NCBI GenBank assembly: GCA_051313645.2
Contig: JBNRSN020000029.1
Span: forward strand, 20,026,001 to 20,090,000
Length of the DNA: 64,000 nt
Direction of reading: 5' to 3'
Origin: Centroscyllium fabricii
Lineage: Eukaryota
The notes beneath the pieces were generated by a model, which worked only from the letters and a program-made list of their open reading frames with translations, was not told where the DNA came from and ran no database searches. Position 1 is the stretch's first letter, and each line of letters starts with the position of its first letter. Made by a program: the position numbers and the translations under genes. Shown piece by piece: positions 2,936 to 23,700 of this stretch.

Positions 2936-3478
2936 TGTCATAGGTTGGATTCCCCTTTAAATTATAGGTCGCCTCTTCTCCCTTAAATTGGCCAGTACCT
3001 CGTTTACTACTGCATTCACCTGATTGGACAGCCCTAATCAACCAATATAATCTTGAGCTGTTTATAAACTTCCACTTTGCACCAGGAGTTTGCCAGATCG
3101 TTAAATCTCTTTCTGTGATACAGGTGTTCTGTTCCTAGCTCTCTGATCCAGTCGATGTGTGTTACTGACCTGCTTACAGAAGAAATGGATTCTACTCTGC
3201 TGGAACTCTGTGTTGGATTTTGTCCCTCCGGTGAAGCGGACTACCTGGAGAATTACTGTTTCTGTATTTGGACTTATTGCTCTCTCCTACCTGAACTCTG
3301 GTTTGGACCTGTTACTCTCTCTTACCTGAACTCTGGTTTGGAATTGTTTGTCTCCGAGAACTTACTGCAGTTATTGACTTTATGTTTCTATATCTTCGGA
3401 TGACTCGGAAATAAAGGAATTTTACTTCTACGCTGGTTTCCGGTGCTTTGCATTTGGGCCCTACCATCAACCGTTACA
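2936..3478 (+). repeat. 5' LTR of chromovirus
   Basis: TG...CA termini (tgtcatagg...ccgttaca), CCAAT-like boxes, TATAAA at 3063-3068, AATAAA near 3410. Confidence 0.95.
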
Positions 3479-3495
3479 GAACGATCTGGCCAGAA

Positions 3496-4430
3496 ATGGA
3501 GCCAGCAGACACACCGAAGCGTCTGGCACAGGTCGAGGGCGCCCTATTACACCAGGGGCAGGCCTTGGGGAGGATAATCACTCAAATGGAGCAGCTAACC
3601 GCCGCCTGGAACTCGCGGGCAGCGTCGGATCCGGCAGGGATTCCACCACCACCAGACCCGGCTTCAGCATCGGTGTCGGCACCCATGCCTCACCTACAAG
3701 GCCTCACACCCGAACCACGAGTCGGGGTACCAGAACGTTATGCCGGTGAACCTGAGCAATGTAATCCCTTCCTCACTAACTGTTCCATTCTGTTTTCATT
3801 GCAGCCCCGCACCTTTGCCAATGAGACGGCAAAGGTAGCCTTTGTGGTTAACCACCTCACAGGAAGAGCTCGTCTTTGGGGAACCGCCGAGTGGGAGAGA
3901 GAGACTCAGGCTTGCTCTTCTTTCAAGGGATTCGCCACCGAATTAAGAAAGGTGTTCGGCATGGTGACCTTCGGCTCCGAAGCAGCTCAGGGACTCATGA
4001 ATCTGAGCCAGGGCAATCAGACAGTGGCTGATTACTCAATAGACTTCCGAATCAGAGCTCGTCTGAGTAATTGGAATTCGGCTGCATTATGTGACGTTTT
4101 TCTTCATGGGCTTGCAGGGTGCATCAAGGATGAACTGGTCTCCTGTGAACTCCCTTCCACCCTGGATGAACTAATTTGTCTTGCCACCAGTAACGATCTC
4201 CGTATCCAGGTGCGTCAACGTGAGAGACTACTGGGAACGACTTGTCGACATCCCCCGAAACTGACTCAAGAGATATTCGTGGCGCCCAGGAATACTGCGA
4301 CAGCAGTGTCAGAGCCAGTAGGCACCGAACCAATGCAGTTGGGTCGCACCAGTATCTCATTGGTGGAGCATAAACGACGCCGCAAGGGGAATCTCTGTTT
4401 GTACTGCTGTCAGGCCGGCCATTTCGTTTC
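3496..4430 (+). CDS. gag: Retrotransposon Gag (capsid-like domain, truncated zinc knuckle)
   Basis: ATG at 3496 just after the PBS. Motifs [41 protein letters not shown] and CLYCCQAGH; the last Cys of the knuckle is missing, suggesting a deletion at the gag-pol junction. Confidence 0.85.
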
Positions 4431-4457
4431 CCAAGACTCTCTCCCAAACCACGACCC

Positions 4458-7400
4458 TTGTGCCAGGGTAGACTTCTTCTCCCTAGGGGATCCCAGACTC
4501 TCGTCAACTTTATTGACTCTGGAACGGACGTCAACATTATCGATGAAGATCTGGTCACACAGCTGGAGATTGACCGGGTGCCACTGCCACTGCCACAGCC
4601 AGTTCCTGCCAATGCCCTAGACGGCCACCTCCTGGGAACGGTGACACATCAGACCTCACCGGTTCATATGCTTCTGTCTGGGAATCATCATGAAAGCATT
4701 CAATTTCATATCTTGAAATCACCTCGGCTTCCTTTAATCCTGGGACACACTTGGCTTCGCCGCCACAAACCTCGCATTGACTGGAACACGGGAGCTATTT
4801 CGGGGTGGAGTTCCTCCTGTCACCAGGTCTGTCTGAAACAGGCTACCGTCATCCAGCAGCCAGTAACACCTCTTCCCGCTTCAGATATTTCAGTGGTCCC
4901 CACCGAATACCATGATTTTAGGGAGGTGTTCAGCAAGGCTAGAGCCACGTCGCTGCCTCCACATCACCCTTATGACTGCGTCATTGATTTGCTGCCAGGT
5001 TCTTCCCCACCCAAGGGACGTCTGTTTTCTTTGTCTGCACCTGAGAGGGAGGCCATGGAAACATACATCGGTGACTCTATGGCGGCGGGGATCATCCGTT
5101 CCTCTTCATCACCAGCTGGGGCTGGATTCTTTTTTGTGGGCAAGAAGGACGGGTCGCTGCGACCATGCATCGACTACAGGGGCCTTAATGACATTACGGT
5201 GAAGAACCGGTATCCTCTTCCTCTCATCTCTTCGGCTTTTGAGTTGCTACAGGGGGCGACCATCTTTACAAAGCTGGATCTTCGTAACGCTTATCATCTG
5301 GTCCAGATATGAGAGGGCAATGAATGGAAGACTGCTTTCAACACCCCCTCTGGACATTATGAGTACCTCGTTATGCCGTTCGGGTTAACCAACGCCCCAG
5401 CGGTATTCCAAGCCTTGGTTAATGATGTTTTACGATACATGCTGAATAGGTTTGTGTTCGTGTACATGGACGACATTATAATCTTTTCCAAATCTCGTGA
5501 GGAGCATGTGCACCACGTCCAGACTGTCCTACAACGGCTCCTGGAGAACTCATTGTTCGTGAAGGCAGAGAAATGTGAGTTTCATGTCACTACCGTCTCT
5601 TTCCTGGGGTACATCATTGCGCAGGGGAGCGTGCAGATGGATCCAGAGAAGGTGTCAGCTGTTGCGTCAATGTCGTACTTGTAAGCTGAGAGTCCACTGC
5701 ACTCTATTAGAGTCCACTGCACTCGCCAATTTTTATCGACGGTTCATTCCTAGCTACAGTATGGTAGCGGCTCCGTCATCGGCTCTTACCTCCTCAAGGG
5801 TGCCGTTCCTGTGGTCTCCTGCAGCTGAGGAGGCTTTTCGAGATCTCAGGTCCCGGTTCACTTCTGCTCCCATTTTCCAGGTGCCTGATCCGGATCAGCA
5901 GTTCGTGGTAGAGGTGGACGCATCAGATGTTGGAGTAGGAGCTATTCTGTCGCAACATTCGGCTTCAGACCAAAAGCTACCTCCCTGTGCCTATTTTTCC
6001 AAGCGCCTGTCCTCGGCTGAGATGAACTATGACATCAGGAACCGGGAGTTACTGGCGGTCAAAATGGCATTGGAGGAGTGGCGCCATTGGCTAGAGGGGA
6101 CCAAGCTGCCGTTCCTAGTATGGACTGACCACAAAAATCTTGAATATATTCGCACGGCCAAGAGGCTGAATTCACGGCAGGCTAGGTGGTCTCTCTTCTT
6201 TACACGCTTCAACTTCACCCTCTACTACAGGCCTGGTTCCCGCAATGTCAAGCCTGATGCTCTGTCCCGCCAGTTCCAGAAGGAGGAGGGCCCCGCTCCT
6301 GGATCTGACCTTATCCTTCCAGCTCCTTGTCTTATTGCTGCGGTTACGTGGGAGATCGAGGAGAGAGTGAGATCAGCCGTGGAGGATCAGGCTGGACCCA
6401 GCGGTTGTCCTCCTGACCGTTTATTCGTCCCCACGAACCTTCGACCGGATGTTCTCCTATGGGCCCATGCTTCCAAGCTTTCCTTCCATCCGGGGGCTCA
6501 AAGGACCAAGGAAGTTATATTGCGGAGGTTCTGGTGGGATACACTGGTGGAGGATACCCGGGAATATATCAACGCCTGCTCGGTATGTAACCAACACAAG
6601 CCGTCTCGTCGGGCCCCTGCTGGTCTTCTGCAACCTCTGCCGATACCACATCGCCCTTGGTCCCACATATCCTTGGACTTTGTTACCGGTCTGCCCTCAT
6701 CCAAGGGACTAACCACGATCCTGACTGTGGTGGACCGTTTCAGTAAGATGGCTCACTTCATACCTCTGCCTAAACTGCCCTCAGCGAAGGAGACAGCTGA
6801 ACTCATGCTGCAACATCTTTTCCGGCTTCATGGGCTTCCTTTAGACGTAGTCTCCGATCGGGGTCCTCAGTTTACATCTGTATTCTGGAGGGAGTTCTGC
6901 AGTCTGATCGGGGCTACAGTCAGTCTGTCGTCGGGGTTTCATCCACAGTCCAACGGGCAGTCAGAATGGATGAATCAAGAGATGGAGAAAGCGCTCCGAT
7001 GCATGGTCTCCCAGAATCCCTCTTCCTGGTCCCAGTTACTCCTGTGGGTAGAATACGCTCACAACACTCTGACCAGTTCCGCCACCGCACTCTCCCCGTT
7101 CCAGTGCGCCTATGGATTCCAGCCTCCATTGTTTCCGGATCTGGAAAGGGAGGTTTCCTGTCCGTCCATCCAGGCATTTATTCAGCGTTGTCGCCGAACA
7201 TGGGACCAGGCTCGGACTTCGTTGCTTCGCTCGGCGGATCGATACTCGGCTGCTGCCAACCGTCGTCGTTCGGAGGTTCCTAAATATCAGGTTGGGCAGA
7301 AGGTGTGGCTCTCCACTAAGGACCTGCCTCTCCAAGTGGAGTCGAAGAAGCTTGCTCCTCGTTTTATCGGACGCTTCGAGGTCCAGAAGATTATCAACCC

Positions 7401-7866
7401 AGCTGCTGTGAGACTCAAGCTCCCTCAATCCATGCGGGTTCATCCCACATTTCATGTCTCACGCATCAAGCCAGCACGTGAGAGTGCTTTGGTGCCTGTT
7501 GCCGCGCCCCCTCCACCTCCTCTTATGCTCGGCGGTGGGTTGGTCTACACTGTTCGTCGCCTACTTCGCTCCCGTCGTCGAGGGAGAGGACTTCAGTACC
7601 TCGTGGACTGGGAGGGGTATGGTCCAGAAGAGCGGTCCTGGGTTCCTGCTCGCCACATAGTGGATCCTCAACTCATTGTCGATTTTCACAGGAGGCATCC
7701 CGACCAGCCAGGTAAGAGGACTGCGACCCCTGGGGAGTCTGGACAAGGGTCCGGTCCCGTGCAGTCTCAGGAAACCCTGAATGAGGATGTAGAATCTGCT
7801 AATGAGGAAGATTCCCTTCAGTCTTGTGATGAGATGGACATGGAGGAGGGCCCCGAGGACTGTTAG
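4458..7866 (+). pseudogene. pol: Pol polyprotein (protease, RT, RNase H, integrase, chromodomain) with nonsense and frameshift lesions
   Basis: Protease FIDSG; [34 protein letters not shown]; RNase [16 protein letters not shown]; integrase H-H-C-C finger, [17 protein letters not shown]; chromodomain [16 protein letters not shown]. Stop at 5310-5312 and frameshift near 5670-5725. Confidence 0.92.
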
Positions 7867-16063: not shown

Positions 16064-16968
16064 TTATTTGATTACATGAGTAAGTATGGAGATGGGATGC
16101 TTAATCAAATTCTTAAACTCTTCTCTGAATTTATTCTGTGACACGGCATATATAACCGTGTTTGTGCATGAACTCAGGTTTCCAAGCATATACCCACACT
16201 GTTCCATAATAGCGAAGGAGTCGTTATAGTTTGTTTCCAAAAGGTGAACATCTGTAAAGTGCACACATAAGTAATATATGAAAATTACCATCCATAAAAG
16301 TATAAAATTTCCTGAGATGGCGAGCAGTAAAATGATGGATTTTCTTCGGTTCTCTGTCTCTTGGTCGTCGTGATTATCCCCACTTTTGTTACCTTGGAGT
16401 CCTTTCCTCACTCTATTGGACAGTAGAATGTGCCTGGCGGTCAGGCCATTGAGCAGTAAAATCAAAACAAATGGTGCAAATGGGATCAAAATATTTTCCA
16501 ACCACAAATATGCTGCCCATAAAGCTGAGGTATAGAAGCTTGGTATCACAGAGCAGGACCATGGTACATTGTCAATAATTTCCCGAGGTTCATGCACTAA
16601 GTAGATTGGGACATTTTGTAAGCCGCTTAAGGAACACACCACTCCTATAACCACAGCCACAGTTCTTTCGGTGCAATATTTTGTTCGCAAACTTTGGCAA
16701 CAAATAGCAACAAATCGATCAAAGGTGAAAGCCACAGTTAACCATACAGAACAATCTATTGAAAAATAATGCAGGGCGATAAGGAGACTACAAATAGGGG
16801 TATAGTTCAGGAATGAATAAGGGAAATACGCTTCTTTAATCTGTGAGAGAATTACACCAAATACCAAGATCAGTAGATCAGCCACTGCCATGGCCAACAG
16901 GTAACGGGTGATGCATTTGGAGAGGCCGCAGTTTCCACGGTATAAAATCACAATTGTCACCAAATTAG
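16064..16968 (-). CDS. Class A orphan GPCR, GPR139/GPR142-like, exon 2
   Basis: Acceptor tcctttttgcag at 16969-16980. Open frame with LAMAVADLL (TM2), SVWLTVAFTFDRFVAIC (TM3), PFVLILLLN (TM5), KSIILLLAISGNFILLW (TM6), SCTNTVIY (TM7) and KFREE helix 8. Confidence 0.92.
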
Positions 16969-17555
16969 CTGCAAAAAGGAGGAAATGTCATTACTATCTT
17001 TCCTGATATACAAAAGATAATCAATCGACAGCGCATTGTATGAACATCCAAGATTATTTTATGTTGCTCTACAGCGTATCTCGATCTTTCTCCCGCACCA
17101 TTTGACACGATTAGCAATTCCGACAGGATAAATTTCGATATCGAAATACACAACAAAATTGATCTGTGAGGTACTTCAAAAAAAGCAAAAATCTGCTGTG
17201 AAATTCAAGGGTACAGTACAGCTTTCACCGTACCAAACCAGTCCTTTCAGACTGTCGCCCGTAATATAATCTGTCTGATTTTAATTTCCTTTATTTAATC
17301 GGAAAGGAATCTCAGGCTGGGTAGAAGGAGAACGACCGATTTGCCGGTCACAAACACACCATACATATTGTCGTGGATAACTTTGCAACTGCCCTTCCTT
17401 CCTTAAAACCTACATTGCGGATCCACTTGTTGACAATATTAGACGAACAAACCACAACGCAAGTTCTAAACTAACGTCATGTTGAAAATGTCCCCCAACA
17501 TCTCATCATGTAAGTCCTCGTAAATATTCATACAATGGAGATTTCACTGTGCTAA

Positions 17556-17833
17556 TGTTGAGGCCTGCAAGGCTGAAGGACCACGCTGGACACAGAGAGG
17601 TTGAATGCAGAGTTTTTATTAACTACTTGTTACAGCTAGGGCCAGGTAGGGAGAAAGAGAGAGAGCCACCTGGCTCTCAGATATTTAAAGGTCCCGCGGC
17701 TGGGGACGTCACTGCCGGCTGGCCACCTGGTGACGTCATCACGTCGGGGAAGTCCGTGCGTCCTCCGACGGGCGGGGCCGCTTTGCAGCCTTCCCAGCGC
17801 GGGTTCGTGGCTGCCGGTGGGCGTGTCGCCACA
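17556..17833 (-). repeat. 3' LTR of CsRn1-like element
   Basis: Identical to 20457-20734; AATAAA on minus strand at 17615-17620, CRE-like tgacgtca and a GC box. Confidence 0.95.
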
Positions 17834-18041
17834 CAGCTCCCCCCCAGAATCCGCGAGGGGAAGTGTAGTTTCCTAGAGGAGAGGGAGACAAAAAGGAGAG
17901 CAGACAGACATTTCGATTACACACAGAATGTCCGACAGTTTGCCGCAATGGCCTGGTGTTGTGGCCGGCAGGTGTTGTGTGCTGTTCCGTGGTTCGAAAG
18001 ATGGTGTTGTGGCGGGCCGTCTATGCTCTGCCCGTGTCGCC

Positions 18042-20360
18042 TCAGGCGAGGCGCTTAGGTGGCCTGATGGTCCGTCCGGCACGTGTGATGTGTTGCTTGT
18101 TGGTCTGTGTGGGAGTGTGGGCGGGTTTTGGTGCGGTAGGGCGGCCGCGTTTAGGTGGTTGTGCGGGGACTGTTGTCTCGCCCGCCATTATGTGTGCTGG
18201 TTTGAGCCGGTCAATGGATACGGTCTCAGTTCTGTTGCCCATTTGAATGTCAAAAGTCTTGGGTCCCGCCCGAAGCACTCTGAATGGCCCGTCGTACGGT
18301 GCCTGCAGCGGTGCTTTGTGAGAGTCATGGCGGACAAACACGTACTTGGCGTCCTGAATGGTGTTGGGGACGCGTGTCGCCGGTTGACTGTGGCGGGCCA
18401 CCGGAAGTGGTTTGAATTCTGCTGCCTGGTTGTTGAATTCCCTGAGGCAGCGCTCGGCCGACCAGGGTTCGTTTGTTTCTGCGATGAACTCGCCTGGTAC
18501 GGTTAGTGGTTGGCCGTAAACGAGTTCGGCTGCCGAGGCGTGTAGATCTTCTTTGGCCGCTGTGCGGAGGCCGAGCATTACCCAGGGCAGGCGGTCCTTC
18601 CAGGTTGCGTCCTGGAGGCTGGCCCGCAGGGATGTTTTAAAAGTTCGGTGGAACCGTTCGCAGAGGCCGTTGGCTTGCGGGTGGTAGGCAGTGGTTCGGT
18701 GCAGGGTTACCCCAAGGTCGTGAGCGATGGTTGACCATAGAGTTGAAGTGAATTGGGGGCCCCTGTCTGAAGTAATGTCGTTGGGGACGCCGAAGCGGGC
18801 GACCCAGGTGGCGATGAAGGCCCTGGCCAGTTCGGCGGTGGTGTTGAGGGGGACCGCTTCAGGCCAGCGGGTGGTGCGGTCGACCATTGTGAGGAGGTAC
18901 AAGTGTCCACGTGATGGGGGTAGTGGTCCAACCAGGTCGATGTGCACGTGGCTGAAGCGTCTGGCTGGGATGGCGATTGGTTGGAGCGGTGCTTTGATGT
19001 GTTTGTGCACCTTGGCTCGCTGGCAGGCATTGCACGAGGTGGTCCAGGCGCGGACATCTTGTTTTAGGCCGCGCCAAACGAATCGCGCAGAGATGAGTTT
19101 GGTGGATGCGCGGACGCCGGGGTGGGAGAGGCCGTGGAGGGTCTGGAAGATGTGCTGCCTCCACGCGAGGGGCACCACGGGCCTGGGTTGGGGCAGGGTG
19201 AGGAACTCGGCGAGCAGCGTGGCGTACGTGTCGGAGTTGCGGGCCCGGCAGTGAGCTGCCGCGTGGGTCTGGTGTGCTGGGGCTGTGGAGCACGGAATGG
19301 TCGACATGATTTGGATGTCGACCAGGCGGCGCCGGGTAACATCGACAAGGAGCCCGTGGGCGCACAGAAAGTCGGCTCCGAGTAGGGGCGTGTTAACCTG
19401 CGCGGTGATGAAGTCCCACGTATACCTGTGGCCTGCTAGTTTAATGGTAAGCTGGCGGGTACCGAACGTGAGTATCTCGGAGCCGTTTGCGGCTTCGAGT
19501 GGTGGGCCTTGGGTGCCCTGCTTGGATTCTGCGGGGGAGGCTGGCACGATGCTGTGCTGCGCGCCTGTGTCGCAGAGGAAACGGAGGCCTGAGACACTGT
19601 CTGTAACGAAGAGCAGCGCTCCGGAGCGGCCGACGCACATGGTGGGGCTGGGGCAGGTTTGGGGTTTGAAGTTGCAGGGCGGAACGCAGCGCTGCGCTTT
19701 GGCCTCAAACCTGGTATGGTAGTAGCACCAGCCGGTTGCCGCGGTGCGTGGCTTTTTGTGGGTCCGCGCGGCTCTGAGTTGGGGCCGGGGTTGTGGTTGG
19801 TGCTGCTCTTGTTGAGCGGCAGCGTGGCGGTGCATGGTGGCGCGGGTGCGCTCGGCCTTAATGAGCTTGTCTGCCTCCTGAGCTAGCTGCCTGTTTGAGA
19901 GGTGCTCCAAGACCGTCAGTGTCGGTCTGATGGAGGGCGGCAGCTTAAGGAGGTAGAGGGCGCGCTTAAGGGTGTCTGAGTCGCGATTAAGCACCTCGAA
20001 CTGGGCCCACAAGTCGGTGGGGTCTGCATCTCCCAGGTCGGGGAGGTTAATGACCTGGCAATCGCGCTCGAAAATGGTTGGGGTAAATTTTGCGAGCAGC
20101 GCGGCCTTTAGCGATTCGTACCTGCCAGCAGAAGTGTCTTCCTCGATGGTGTCCCACATTCTGTCGATGGTGGACTGTGCGAGGGCTGCGAAGAGCAGGC
20201 TGTAGCGGTCGTCTGCGTGCACGCCATGAATGCGGAAGGTGTTCTCGGTGTTGCGAAACCAAGCCGCTGGACGGAGCTCCCAGAATTGTGGTATGGTTGG
20301 GACCGGGAGGTAAACTTGGCCCCGTCTGCCTTGGCGTGCTGAGTCGGTTGCTGCTGGCAT
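18042..20360 (-). CDS. Gag-protease-integrase polyprotein (772 aa), RT and RNase H absent
   Basis: Gag IPQFWELRPAAWF and CYYH-x9-C-x3-C motif; protease FLCDTGA...LLGADFL; integrase HGLSHPG...CNAC, HIDLVGP, ITSDRGPQF, ANGLCERFH, PYDGPF. No YxDD motif anywhere in the ORF. Confidence 0.93.
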   Translation of the reverse strand: MPAATDSARQGRRGQVYLPVPTIPQFWELRPAAWFRNTENTFRIHGVHADDRYSLLFAALAQSTIDRMWDTIEEDTSAGRYESLKAALLAKFTPTIFERDCQVINLPDLGDADPTDLWAQFEVLNRDSDTLKRALYLLKLPPSIRPTLTVLEHLSNRQLAQEADKLIKAERTRATMHRHAAAQQEQHQPQPRPQLRAARTHKKPRTAATGWCYYHTRFEAKAQRCVPPCNFKPQTCPSPTMCVGRSGALLFVTDSVSGLRFLCDTGAQHSIVPASPAESKQGTQGPPLEAANGSEILTFGTRQLTIKLAGHRYTWDFITAQVNTPLLGADFLCAHGLLVDVTRRRLVDIQIMSTIPCSTAPAHQTHAAAHCRARNSDTYATLLAEFLTLPQPRPVVPLAWRQHIFQTLHGLSHPGVRASTKLISARFVWRGLKQDVRAWTTSCNACQRAKVHKHIKAPLQPIAIPARRFSHVHIDLVGPLPPSRGHLYLLTMVDRTTRWPEAVPLNTTAELARAFIATWVARFGVPNDITSDRGPQFTSTLWSTIAHDLGVTLHRTTAYHPQANGLCERFHRTFKTSLRASLQDATWKDRLPWVMLGLRTAAKEDLHASAAELVYGQPLTVPGEFIAETNEPWSAERCLREFNNQAAEFKPLPVARHSQPATRVPNTIQDAKYVFVRHDSHKAPLQAPYDGPFRVLRAGPKTFDIQMGNRTETVSIDRLKPAHIMAGETTVPAQPPKRGRPTAPKPAHTPTQTNKQHITRAGRTIRPPKRLA

Positions 20361-20456
20361 GGTGGTAGCGATTCGACTGCGGCAGCTTGTCCCTCAGTCC
20401 TGCAGTGGCTGCTTCATTGTTCCCCTGAGAAACGTCTCAGGTATCGGGGTCAGCAG

Positions 20457-20734
20457 TGTTGAGGCCTGCAAGGCTGAAGGACCACGCTGGACACAGAGAG
20501 GTTGAATGCAGAGTTTTTATTAACTACTTGTTACAGCTAGGGCCAGGTAGGGAGAAAGAGAGAGAGCCACCTGGCTCTCAGATATTTAAAGGTCCCGCGG
20601 CTGGGGACGTCACTGCCGGCTGGCCACCTGGTGACGTCATCACGTCGGGGAAGTCCGTGCGTCCTCCGACGGGCGGGGCCGCTTTGCAGCCTTCCCAGCG
20701 CGGGTTCGTGGCTGCCGGTGGGCGTGTCGCCACA
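20457..20734 (-). repeat. 5' LTR of CsRn1-like element
   Basis: Followed on the minus strand by c-TGCTGACCCCGA (PBS-like, 20444-20455). Confidence 0.95.
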
Positions 20735-23700
20735 CTAACATGATTCAGAGAGCAATATTCCATCGCTCTGGTTTCTGGCATCAGGTGAACATTTCTGCCA
20801 GGGGTTGATCACGTGCTTTTCCTCAGGAAATGACAGCAAATTATGATTTCGGAACGATTCGTTGATCATTTGCACAATATAGCAGCAAAGATTTCATTTT
20901 GGATTGTGCCTTAACTATGTAACACCAGAGTCGGTTATATCCCGGCAGCCGGTTAAGTGGTGAGATTAACATGGGGTCCGATCATGGGCAGAGGGAACAT
21001 TAGTGCAATCTCAGAGATATGACTGGTAAAACAGTAAAACCACAGTTATTATTAGAAAAATGGGTTCTGGTATGGATCTGACACGGAGTTTAGAAATGCA
21101 TTTGAAATGTAGTTTTTCTGTAACATCGATGACTATGAATATATACTGGGGGCTCTGAATAGAAAAGCTCTTCTCTGCAATCAAGAGCTTGTTCGTCATG
21201 GGCGGTAATACGCATGATATTCACTTTTTTAGACCAATACATCCTAATATCGGGAGGGACAGCACAAGCGATGCAGAACAAGAATTGCTACATGTAGATA
21301 ATGGTGGGTTCCGGAGTAACTCAAATCACTGCTCAGCTATTTATCACATATCTATTTCAAACTGTAAATTTTAAACGAAGTATAATTATTGACCTCGTTT
21401 TACAACAGGAAATCTGTTCTTTGGCCTGCACCCTAAGCAGAATAATATAAAATTAATTAGCTCTTGTATCAGGTCCAAATCTCTGTTAAAAGCGGATATC
21501 TAAGTTTTGGGAATAGTGCCGATTACAAACCTGGTATTGAAAACTCTTGTCAACATAATGACTACCCATATAACAATCATATCACAATTTAACTATTCCC
21601 TCTTTTGGGCTGCATGTATGACACAATATTACTATTGCCTCCAGTTTTTGTGAATAACAGTATTTTTTCATCTATCACCAGGGAGATTAAAGTCTATAAT
21701 TGATTGTAACTAATTATCGCCTGGTTTATGAAACGAGATTAAACGACTAGTAACAAAGAAAATTATTTTCAACATCACGCCCCTGGCCGAGAATCTGAAG
21801 AACGGTTGGCGAGTAGTCTGCCGGCCATTCAGCCCACTGCTGACTCTCCCCTTCTGTGAGGAATCCACTGAAGTTCTGTGGTAAGTTCAACCATTTAAAT
21901 CATTTCTCACGGATATCCAGGATCATCTGTCCAGGTTTGGATGGCCCGCGAAAATTGTATTGTTGACACACTACTGCTACCATGCACGTTAAACGTGGGG
22001 TAGAATGTAGCCTGAGCTACCTGGGCATCAACCATCGCTTGAGTATGTGGGTAGAAATTGGTATTGGTCCTCAGCGCTTTCGCATGTGACGCCTGTTATA
22101 TGCCTCGCGTGTTAATCAGTTCTGTTGAGTTCAATGGAACTGAAATTCGGACTGGAAGTGAGAGACAGACACGTTATCGCCGATCAACCTCCAAGATGTT
22201 GAAAGGGAAATCTGGCGGCTATTATCACGGATACTAACAGAATCCAATGCTTTTATTTTCCTTTCAAAAATAATGGGCCATGATCTACTGTTTTGTTAGG
22301 GAAGGGTTAGGTTCCGTAGTATTTTCCTTTCCGTGACGATCTCAGAATATGCGGAAAGTCCCGCACGTAAATATTACAAACTATCCTATAATGTGCGGAG
22401 GAATCACCAGGTACATCACCTTGGCATTAGAATTAGAGCATCACAGCATTAGTTGGACTCGATTTAGTATCGCTTGGCTCACATCATTTGCGTAGTCAAT
22501 AATTGACTCCAGCTGAATGCAGTGGGCGGGACCTTGTTCCGAGTGGCAGCCGTTCGACAGATTTGCAATTGCTCGTAAACTTTCACGGTTTTGCACGGGA
22601 AGTCCCTGTCAGCCAACAAGCAATAAAGCGCAGCGCCTTCCACATGGCATCTGGGGCTTTAGTGCACTCGGCGAGCAACTGTGTATCTTATAGCCAATCA
22701 GATTCATGAATCATTTCTGAGAGCATCACCGTTTCTGAACCAGAAGTATTTGATAGAATTCAAGGTCAAACCAGATACAGAAGCGAAAGAAGGAAAGGGA
22801 AACAACAAATCGATTAAGAGCGAGATATTGGTAGTTAAAAGAATCAGAAAGCCAGTGGAAAAAGATATATCCTCTCCAACAAAACGTAATAGAGAAAAAA
22901 TGGGACTCCACACTTTTAATTTTAACTTCAATGCCAGAGACGTTGTTTTGCAGTAAGTAGGATTTAGCATGCCGTTAAAGGGGCACTTCGAATAGAATGG
23001 ACCAGCCGTGCCTTCTCCTGGCGAGTTTAGACCATATATATGGGGCAAGTACAGTAAGATTACTCTGACCATTGCATTTCAATGGTGAAGGAGTACAAAT
23101 GTGGAAATTCAAAGGAGACAAATTGGAGTCCAACATCAGATGATCTGGAGACAGCTTTTACTTTTAAACTGAACATCTAAAGTGATTACCCCCTGCTGTG
23201 AGAGAAAACATATGTCCTGTCCCTGCAGATAAACAACCCCAAAAAATGCCTCTGGTGGGAGGAAACAAATGTCTTGTCCTTACCGATAAGCCACCTTCGT
23301 TAAACAGACAACAAATGGACATGTTATTGATGGTAGGGAAATCACAGTTTGCTACGGAGGCCAGCTAATTGGCAGCCTGTGATTAACTCAGTTTGCAATG
23401 ACAGATTTATTTCGCTCAATTATGGGAAGATTTAGATACGAAAGTAATATTCCTTAATTGCCATGTGACTATTTTTAACTATGTGATTGGATAATTTGTG
23501 TAGAACAATGACTGGTTATAGCAACTATTTTGAGAAGCCTGGCAAAAGTATCCATAAGGTTTTGAGCACTTCTCCCAGAGCTCTGTCAATTATTAAACAG
23601 CAGTTTGTCTATACTATTATGTGTCTGAGTGTAAGTCATTGAATATATGTATTAAGTTGGGTATACGTCGACATTGCTTTACGCTTGGTCCATTCAGGCT

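Follow-up and report, generated by a model that had tools for sequence, protein, structure and literature searches.

An internally deleted Gypsy-family copy in Centroscyllium fabricii, probably left by a recurrent template-switch slip of reverse transcriptase

Introduction

Several described systems resemble the locus reported here. CsRn1 elements are characterized by a CHCC Gag motif, a tRNA-Trp primer site and a 4-bp target-site duplication (TSD), according to the sections of PMC2582038 drawn on in this article. The mouse IAP 1-delta-1 form carries a 1.9-kb deletion that fuses gag to pol; the relevant part of PMC6466679 describes it as non-autonomous, amplified and responsible for most new IAP insertions. 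For the deletion step itself, retroviral reverse transcriptase (RT) is known to produce deletions at direct repeats and to transfer strands at the bases of hairpins and where it pauses (PMC3187697, in the part used here), and non-homologous switching by HIV-1 RT has been tied to the extension of mismatched ends (PMC13288777, likewise in part).

The window analyzed here is a 64,000-nucleotide stretch of the Centroscyllium fabricii genome (GenBank assembly GCA_051313645.2, contig JBNRSN020000029.1, positions 20,026,001 to 20,090,000 of the forward strand). It contains an LTR element whose single open reading frame passes directly from protease to integrase. A sequence-only reading of the window described this element as very young and intact, and proposed that it may represent a replicating non-autonomous family formed by template switching. 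Comparison with the rest of the genome suggests that the element is probably an internally deleted Gypsy-family copy produced by a recurrent RT template-switch slip, with no daughter in the assembly.

Results

Sequence comparison of the window delimits an RT-less element of 3,179 bp at 17556-20734 on the minus strand, on which all of its features lie. It is flanked by 4-bp CTAA TSDs (left copy 17552..17555, right copy 20735..20738), and its 3' LTR of subfamily A type (17556..17833) and 5' LTR (20457..20734) are each 278 bp long with 100% identity to one another. One frame of 772 codons (18042..20360) encodes Gag, protease and integrase. The overall architecture that had been read from the sequence (a 3.18-kb element, identical 278-bp LTRs, a CTAA TSD and a 772-aa ORF) is thus confirmed, as is its high GC and CpG content: the element has a GC fraction of 0.61 and a CpG observed/expected ratio of 0.88, versus 0.41 and 0.67 in the flanks.

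A Pfam scan of the 772-aa ORF reports DUF7041 (aa 23-94), the zinc-binding domain Integrase_H2C2 (aa 396-451; 19008..19175) and the integrase core rve (aa 467-561; 18678..18962). The same scan finds neither RT nor RNase H, in agreement with their reported absence, and its protease match is weak (E 0.004, under the cut-off); the aspartic protease region, with a DTG at aa 264, has approximate limits of 19311..19628. The Gag CHCC motif CX2HX9CX3C, as defined in the available part of PMC2582038, occupies aa 212-229 (19674..19727) and begins at aa 212 in both RT-less copies found in the genome. A tRNA-Trp-type primer-binding site lies at 20445..20455, with a private change at 20453, and the polypurine tract region (17834..17847) matches that of full-length copies. 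The CsRn1-type features named by the sequence-only reading, namely the CHCC motif, the tRNA-Trp-type primer site and the 4-bp TSD, are therefore all found.

Two other features of the window were recorded. A 307-codon open frame at 16064-16987 on the minus strand encodes a rhodopsin-family 7TM receptor, and the element is about 570 bp from the upstream end of this frame. At 3415-7866 on the plus strand there is a fragmented chromodomain-bearing Gypsy element, consisting of Gag, partial RT, RNase H, integrase, SH3 and Chromo.

Searching the 7.2-Gb genome yielded copies that match each half of the element at 98-100% identity, with the split between the halves at element position 1629-1646. The 20 loci first examined, which are the best matches to the element halves, are mostly 4,808 bp long with an open frame of 1,326 codons, and 16 of them have identical LTRs. 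Within one full-length copy, RVT_1 spans aa 457-614 and RNase H aa 680-810. Relative to the full-length protein the window copy is without aa 387-928, a loss of 1,623 bp or 541 codons, and the RT and RNase H of full-length copies with the same LTR occupy exactly this gap. A full-length, RT-bearing partner with an identical LTR, the existence of which had been anticipated, is therefore present. Alignment with full-length subfamily A copies also refines the junction, previously put at about 19185-19205, to the bond between 19201 and 19202.

The parent family is 4.75-4.8 kb in full-length form and numbers about 4,500 copies in the genome, where its 5' breakpoint site is matched 4,498 times. It was sampled on contig C1 by taking 80 of the first 87 matches to that site, the remaining seven being subfamily B copies taken previously; both LTRs were in view in 77 of the 80. 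Among these 77 copies, 53 have an open frame of at least 1,290 codons, 33 have identical LTRs, 73 share with the window copy a 4-bp TSD, and 76 match the published tRNA-Trp primer site. The shortest sampled copy is at least 4,688 bp long, and the largest deletion among the seven subfamily B copies is 360 bp, in a sample that requires an intact 5' breakpoint site and so under-counts deletions there. The parent family is a large recent burst comprising several subfamilies, and kilobase deletions within it are rare.

Further variation was observed in this family. Subfamilies vary in length between RNase H and integrase (coding positions of about 2,880-2,960; elements of 4,751-4,856 bp), and this length-variable stretch is C-rich, i.e. 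G-rich on the minus strand. One copy, L039 (C822:299.50 Mb), has three LTRs, two of them in tandem at one end. Two copies of a diverged subfamily that is 92-95% identical to A, L203 (C335:2.14 Mb) and L204 (C1377:175.06 Mb), each harbor about 4.7 kb of inserted DNA. The inserts, which are bounded by TG...CA, have differing end sequences, and both sit at the one 5-bp site that forms the 3' breakpoint of the window copy. Finally, contigs near-identical to the full-length element occur at depths of about 5-90 in runs X3, X5 (organism B), X6 (organism C) and X8 (organism D). The possible reasons include RNA runs, related species, low-copy horizontal transfer and contamination; the public-run listing names no RNA run that contains the element.

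Three search patterns locate the junction at two loci genome-wide, the window and L002 (C778:7,311,682-7,314,868). L002 is a separate insertion with an ACAT TSD and flanks dissimilar to those of the window copy; it has two LTR differences and a 774-aa frame, and its primer-binding site and polypurine tract match those of full-length copies. The junction thus does recur at a further locus with a different TSD, the finding that the sequence-only reading had named as the sign of a replicating deletion family. The two copies nevertheless fall into different subfamilies: at the 32 diagnostic sites that distinguish A from B, the window copy has the A state at all 32 and L002 the B state at 29, and the sites closest to the junction lie 169 nt before and 8 nt after it. 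The copies show 46 differences over 2,622 shared sites, and each is 10 differences from its nearest full-length copy. Among 124 copies, no two-copy variant is common to the window copy and L002. In a tree of 47 of these copies, picked to include nearest neighbors, a clade of the two is rejected (AU p 8.2e-07, at a cost of 114 log-likelihood units). Given different subfamilies, the lack of a shared variant and the rejected clade, the junction formed independently twice, unless two very close crossovers moved it.

These data do not show descent of several insertions from one deletion, since the two loci belong to different subfamilies, and the proposed replicating non-autonomous family, which would comprise 2 of about 4,500 copies, is not upheld. 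A narrower version of that proposal, to which we give little credence, is that the RT-less form has gone through one or more rounds of copying in trans and represents an early non-autonomous lineage like IAP 1-delta-1. The window copy would then be the daughter of an older deleted copy that the assembly does not contain, or recombination would have moved the junction between subfamilies. Both copies do keep an open frame (772 and 774 aa), and their junctions are base-identical and placed off the homology. The window copy's interior is also more diverged than its identical LTRs suggest, and inter-subfamily recombination is plausible because some sampled copies are intermediate in distance between A and B. 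Junction transfer, however, needs crossovers within 169 nt on one side and 8 nt on the other. A lineage copied in trans is hard to reconcile with so low a copy number and with two private markers of the window copy, a 6-bp in-frame loss in the integrase core (18830..18845) and paired synonymous variants at 18072/18075, each of which was sought genome-wide and occurs at no other locus. The window-copy ORF has 5 non-synonymous changes, 3 synonymous changes and one 2-codon loss, which are too few for dN/dS and give no sign of constraint.

The recurrent RT template-switch slip preferred here was evaluated through the sequence of the junction. The deletion ends form an 18-nt imperfect direct repeat, with 13 positions alike in A and 14 in B and a perfect core of 6-7 nt. 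The downstream copy of this repeat (19184..19201 in the window, 13/18 alike) contains a perfect 6-nt microhomology at 19195-19200, and the join falls 1 nt outside this core. The downstream repeat is retained whole in both the window copy and L002, as minus-strand switching predicts. The earlier suggestion of a template switch at a microhomology encoding Gln-Pro therefore stands as far as a deletion between short repeats is concerned, but the perfect match lies in Thr-Leu codons; the Gln-Pro codons are outside it, within the wider 13-of-18 repeat.

The repeat itself is unexceptional. In the A copy, an 18-nt window just as good is present at 472 of 4,132 offsets, and the duplex energy of the true partner ranks 226 of 2,827 in A and 115 of 2,771 in B. 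Homology alone thus does not account for the recurrence, and homology rank was rejected as its cause. The 45 nt preceding the 3' breakpoint form a predicted RNA hairpin that ends 3 nt away from it in both subfamilies; a comparable hairpin is found at 2.4% of the positions sampled in A and 0.9% of those in B, for a 45-nt window that was picked after a first fold.

Two further candidates were considered and rejected. The junction base is present at the 5' site of four full-length copies, which could indicate a parent variant that extends the microhomology, but these four are without the window copy's private variants. Splicing was rejected by eye: whichever strand is read, none of the registers compatible with the join makes the removed stretch GT...AG.

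On the minus strand, G-rich tracts are present at both breakpoints as well, which makes a DNA-level route conceivable. Under this alternative, which we consider unlikely, a full-length insertion later suffered a chromosomal deletion through microhomology-mediated repair, perhaps begun at quadruplex-capable G-rich tracts. The 5' tract ranks third to fourth by a G4Hunter-type score on the minus strand and the 3' end adjoins one of two canonical G3 motifs, although the element is C-rich throughout and minus-strand G-rich windows are consequently common. The timing is compatible, since the insertion is old enough to occur in two samples and to have acquired about 11 uncommon changes. Simple repair, on the other hand, is not expected to keep the same mismatched junction base twice, and no junction was found with its crossover within the microhomology. 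The sequence-only reading had offered a one-off deletion after insertion as its own alternative; the deletion may have followed insertion, but a junction present at two loci is not a one-off.

Other deletions starting from the same 5' tract were collected with a degenerate pattern, which is by design blind to in-register junctions and misses perhaps two thirds of the rest on a base-composition estimate. It gave 21 matches, 15 unrelated and 6 from the element: two deletions of 1,778/1,835 bp, two of 141 bp, and single ones of 292 and 10 bp. L064 (C1:577.93 Mb) and L200 (C113:114.81 Mb) share the 1,778/1,835-bp junction, which is out of frame and removes RT plus the integrase zinc finger; their subfamilies are about 6% apart. 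L198 (C113:38.64 Mb) and L199 (C1322:1.44 Mb) have an identical in-frame 141-bp deletion with differing TSDs and differing nearest relatives. Neither pair stays within one subfamily, and for each of them a clade is rejected (p 1.5e-05 and 2e-126). An out-of-frame junction is therefore as recurrent as the in-frame one, which removes the need for selection on an open frame and counts against a lineage copied in trans. The polarity of the 141-bp junction is the reverse, which implies that more than one route is at work.

One control site gave 3 matches, one of them a deletion of at least 100 bp. A second gave 90, and the 30 of these that were examined are mostly older relatives with small indels. 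With five deletions of at least 100 bp at the 5' tract versus one at the single clean control site, the tract is likely a deletion hot spot, albeit on small numbers. Its interpretation as a G-quadruplex hot spot was not adopted and is suggestive only, with 3 matches at the first control and the second swamped by older related families.

The window copy proved to be neither intact nor clearly young. The third base of its primer site (20453) is unlike that of all 42 other copies examined; this base is one of the three that would pair with the CCA end of the tRNA. The integrase core is two residues short, its motif spacing being 33 versus 35 in 102 of the 106 proteins in which the motifs were found (121 examined). 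Among its cis signals, then, the primer-binding site is altered, and the polypurine tract and LTRs are like those of full-length copies.

About 11 changes in the window copy are absent from most subfamily copies. Averaged over 18 sampled subfamily A copies, its distance from them is 15.2, and the corresponding values among members are 4.6-10.5, with a set cut-off that excluded about one more divergent member. The internal region is thus farther from the subfamily than that of any of the 18, at 2-3 times the usual distance. The identical LTRs noted by the sequence-only reading are real but common in the family (33 of 77 sampled copies), and together with the unusually distant interior this indicates that the window copy is not among the youngest. 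It may be old for its clade or may derive from an aged intermediate. Its divergence combined with identical LTRs is somewhat easier to explain by copying from an older intermediate than by ageing in place, under which LTRs would remain identical with a chance of roughly 1 in 10 by our own estimate.

The junction is known from assembly sequence, and the read evidence consists of Logan contigs, which cover the flank-LTR joints. A collapsed locus that actually contains RT and RNase H appears very improbable. Logan contigs of run X1 compared with a full-length copy give no 1,623-bp joint, but they are equally without all 12 known assembly deletions of at least 100 bp, which makes them uninformative on this point. 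Both flank-LTR joints are intact in runs X2 and X11, which represent two samples, one of them maybe the assembly source. A repeat with 13 of 18 positions alike would also not be expected to cause collapse, or to do so at two loci with the bases of the right subfamily each time.

Discussion

The preferred account of the window element, an RT slip during copying of a full-length RNA, can be set out as a series of proposed steps. During minus-strand synthesis on that RNA, RT would pause 3 nt before the predicted hairpin, just upstream of the start of integrase. The nascent strand would then re-pair 1.6 kb onward through 6-7 matching bases and the imperfect repeat, with extension proceeding past a single mismatch at its end. 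Integration of the shortened cDNA would rely on proteins encoded by the full-length RNA. The open frame would be a chance outcome of the repeat spacing, which is a multiple of three, and the damage that the primer site and integrase core suffered afterwards has probably made the copy a dead end.

The element has little import as such, since a burst that yields thousands of copies should include internally deleted ones. It does provide a caution: the same junction with different TSDs can mislead, because identical junctions recur independently, and ancestry must therefore be examined as well. In addition, the family supplies natural replicates for locating the template switches of a Gypsy RT. 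If the form were amplifying, it would be a rare RT-less family that retains integrase. A stronger version, which we regard as improbable, holds that a structure-guided hot spot repeatedly removes RT and RNase H in frame and that the Gag-protease-integrase form has undergone one or more rounds of trans-copying already; were trans-copying true, the locus would show the seed of a parasite like IAP 1-delta-1 in a vertebrate Gypsy family before amplification.

RT-less fusion proteins were also sought elsewhere. The best protein homologues are fish and invertebrate Gypsy polyproteins, and, with 7,986 candidates scored, the best 120 of 2,390 matches all contain RVT_1. Among the same best 120 of 2,390, no single alignment covers more than 67% of the fusion-spanning query. 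No published report of an RT-less Gag-protease-integrase Gypsy family was found among the titles and abstract openings covered, which came from outside subscription journals.

With the CsRn1 clade of Ty3/Gypsy elements (CsRn1, PwRn1 and AgCR), the family shares the CHCC motif, the tRNA-Trp-type primer-binding site, the 4-bp TSD and a GPY/F-type motif, and some clade members likewise have a single fused ORF, as given in the sections of PMC2582038 used here. The window copy differs from the clade in being without RT and RNase H and in its changed primer site, whereas its full-length parents have neither defect. Judged by these sequence features, the window copy belongs to a CsRn1-type family, of which it is a defective member.

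Template-switch deletions by retroviral RT show the same loss of one repeat plus the intervening sequence, the adjacent hairpin and the extension of a mismatched end (PMC3187697 and PMC13288777, in the parts cited above). Unlike them, the window junction is known from fixed genomic copies alone, and its repeat is very short and imperfect. The TR-GAG or 'semi-autonomous' plant LTR families resemble the window copy in having kept Gag and protease and lost RT, but the accessible part of PMC13570524 describes them as multi-copy and mostly restricted to Gag and protease, while the window copy keeps integrase and does not form a family. IAP 1-delta-1, as presented in the same part of PMC6466679, has in common with the window copy a kilobase-scale internal deletion, one fused gag-pol frame and a need for proteins supplied in trans; it differs in being amplified, whereas the window copy and L002 are two independent singletons among about 4,500 copies. 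The likeness of the window copy to TR-GAG is less close than its likeness to the starting point of IAP 1-delta-1.
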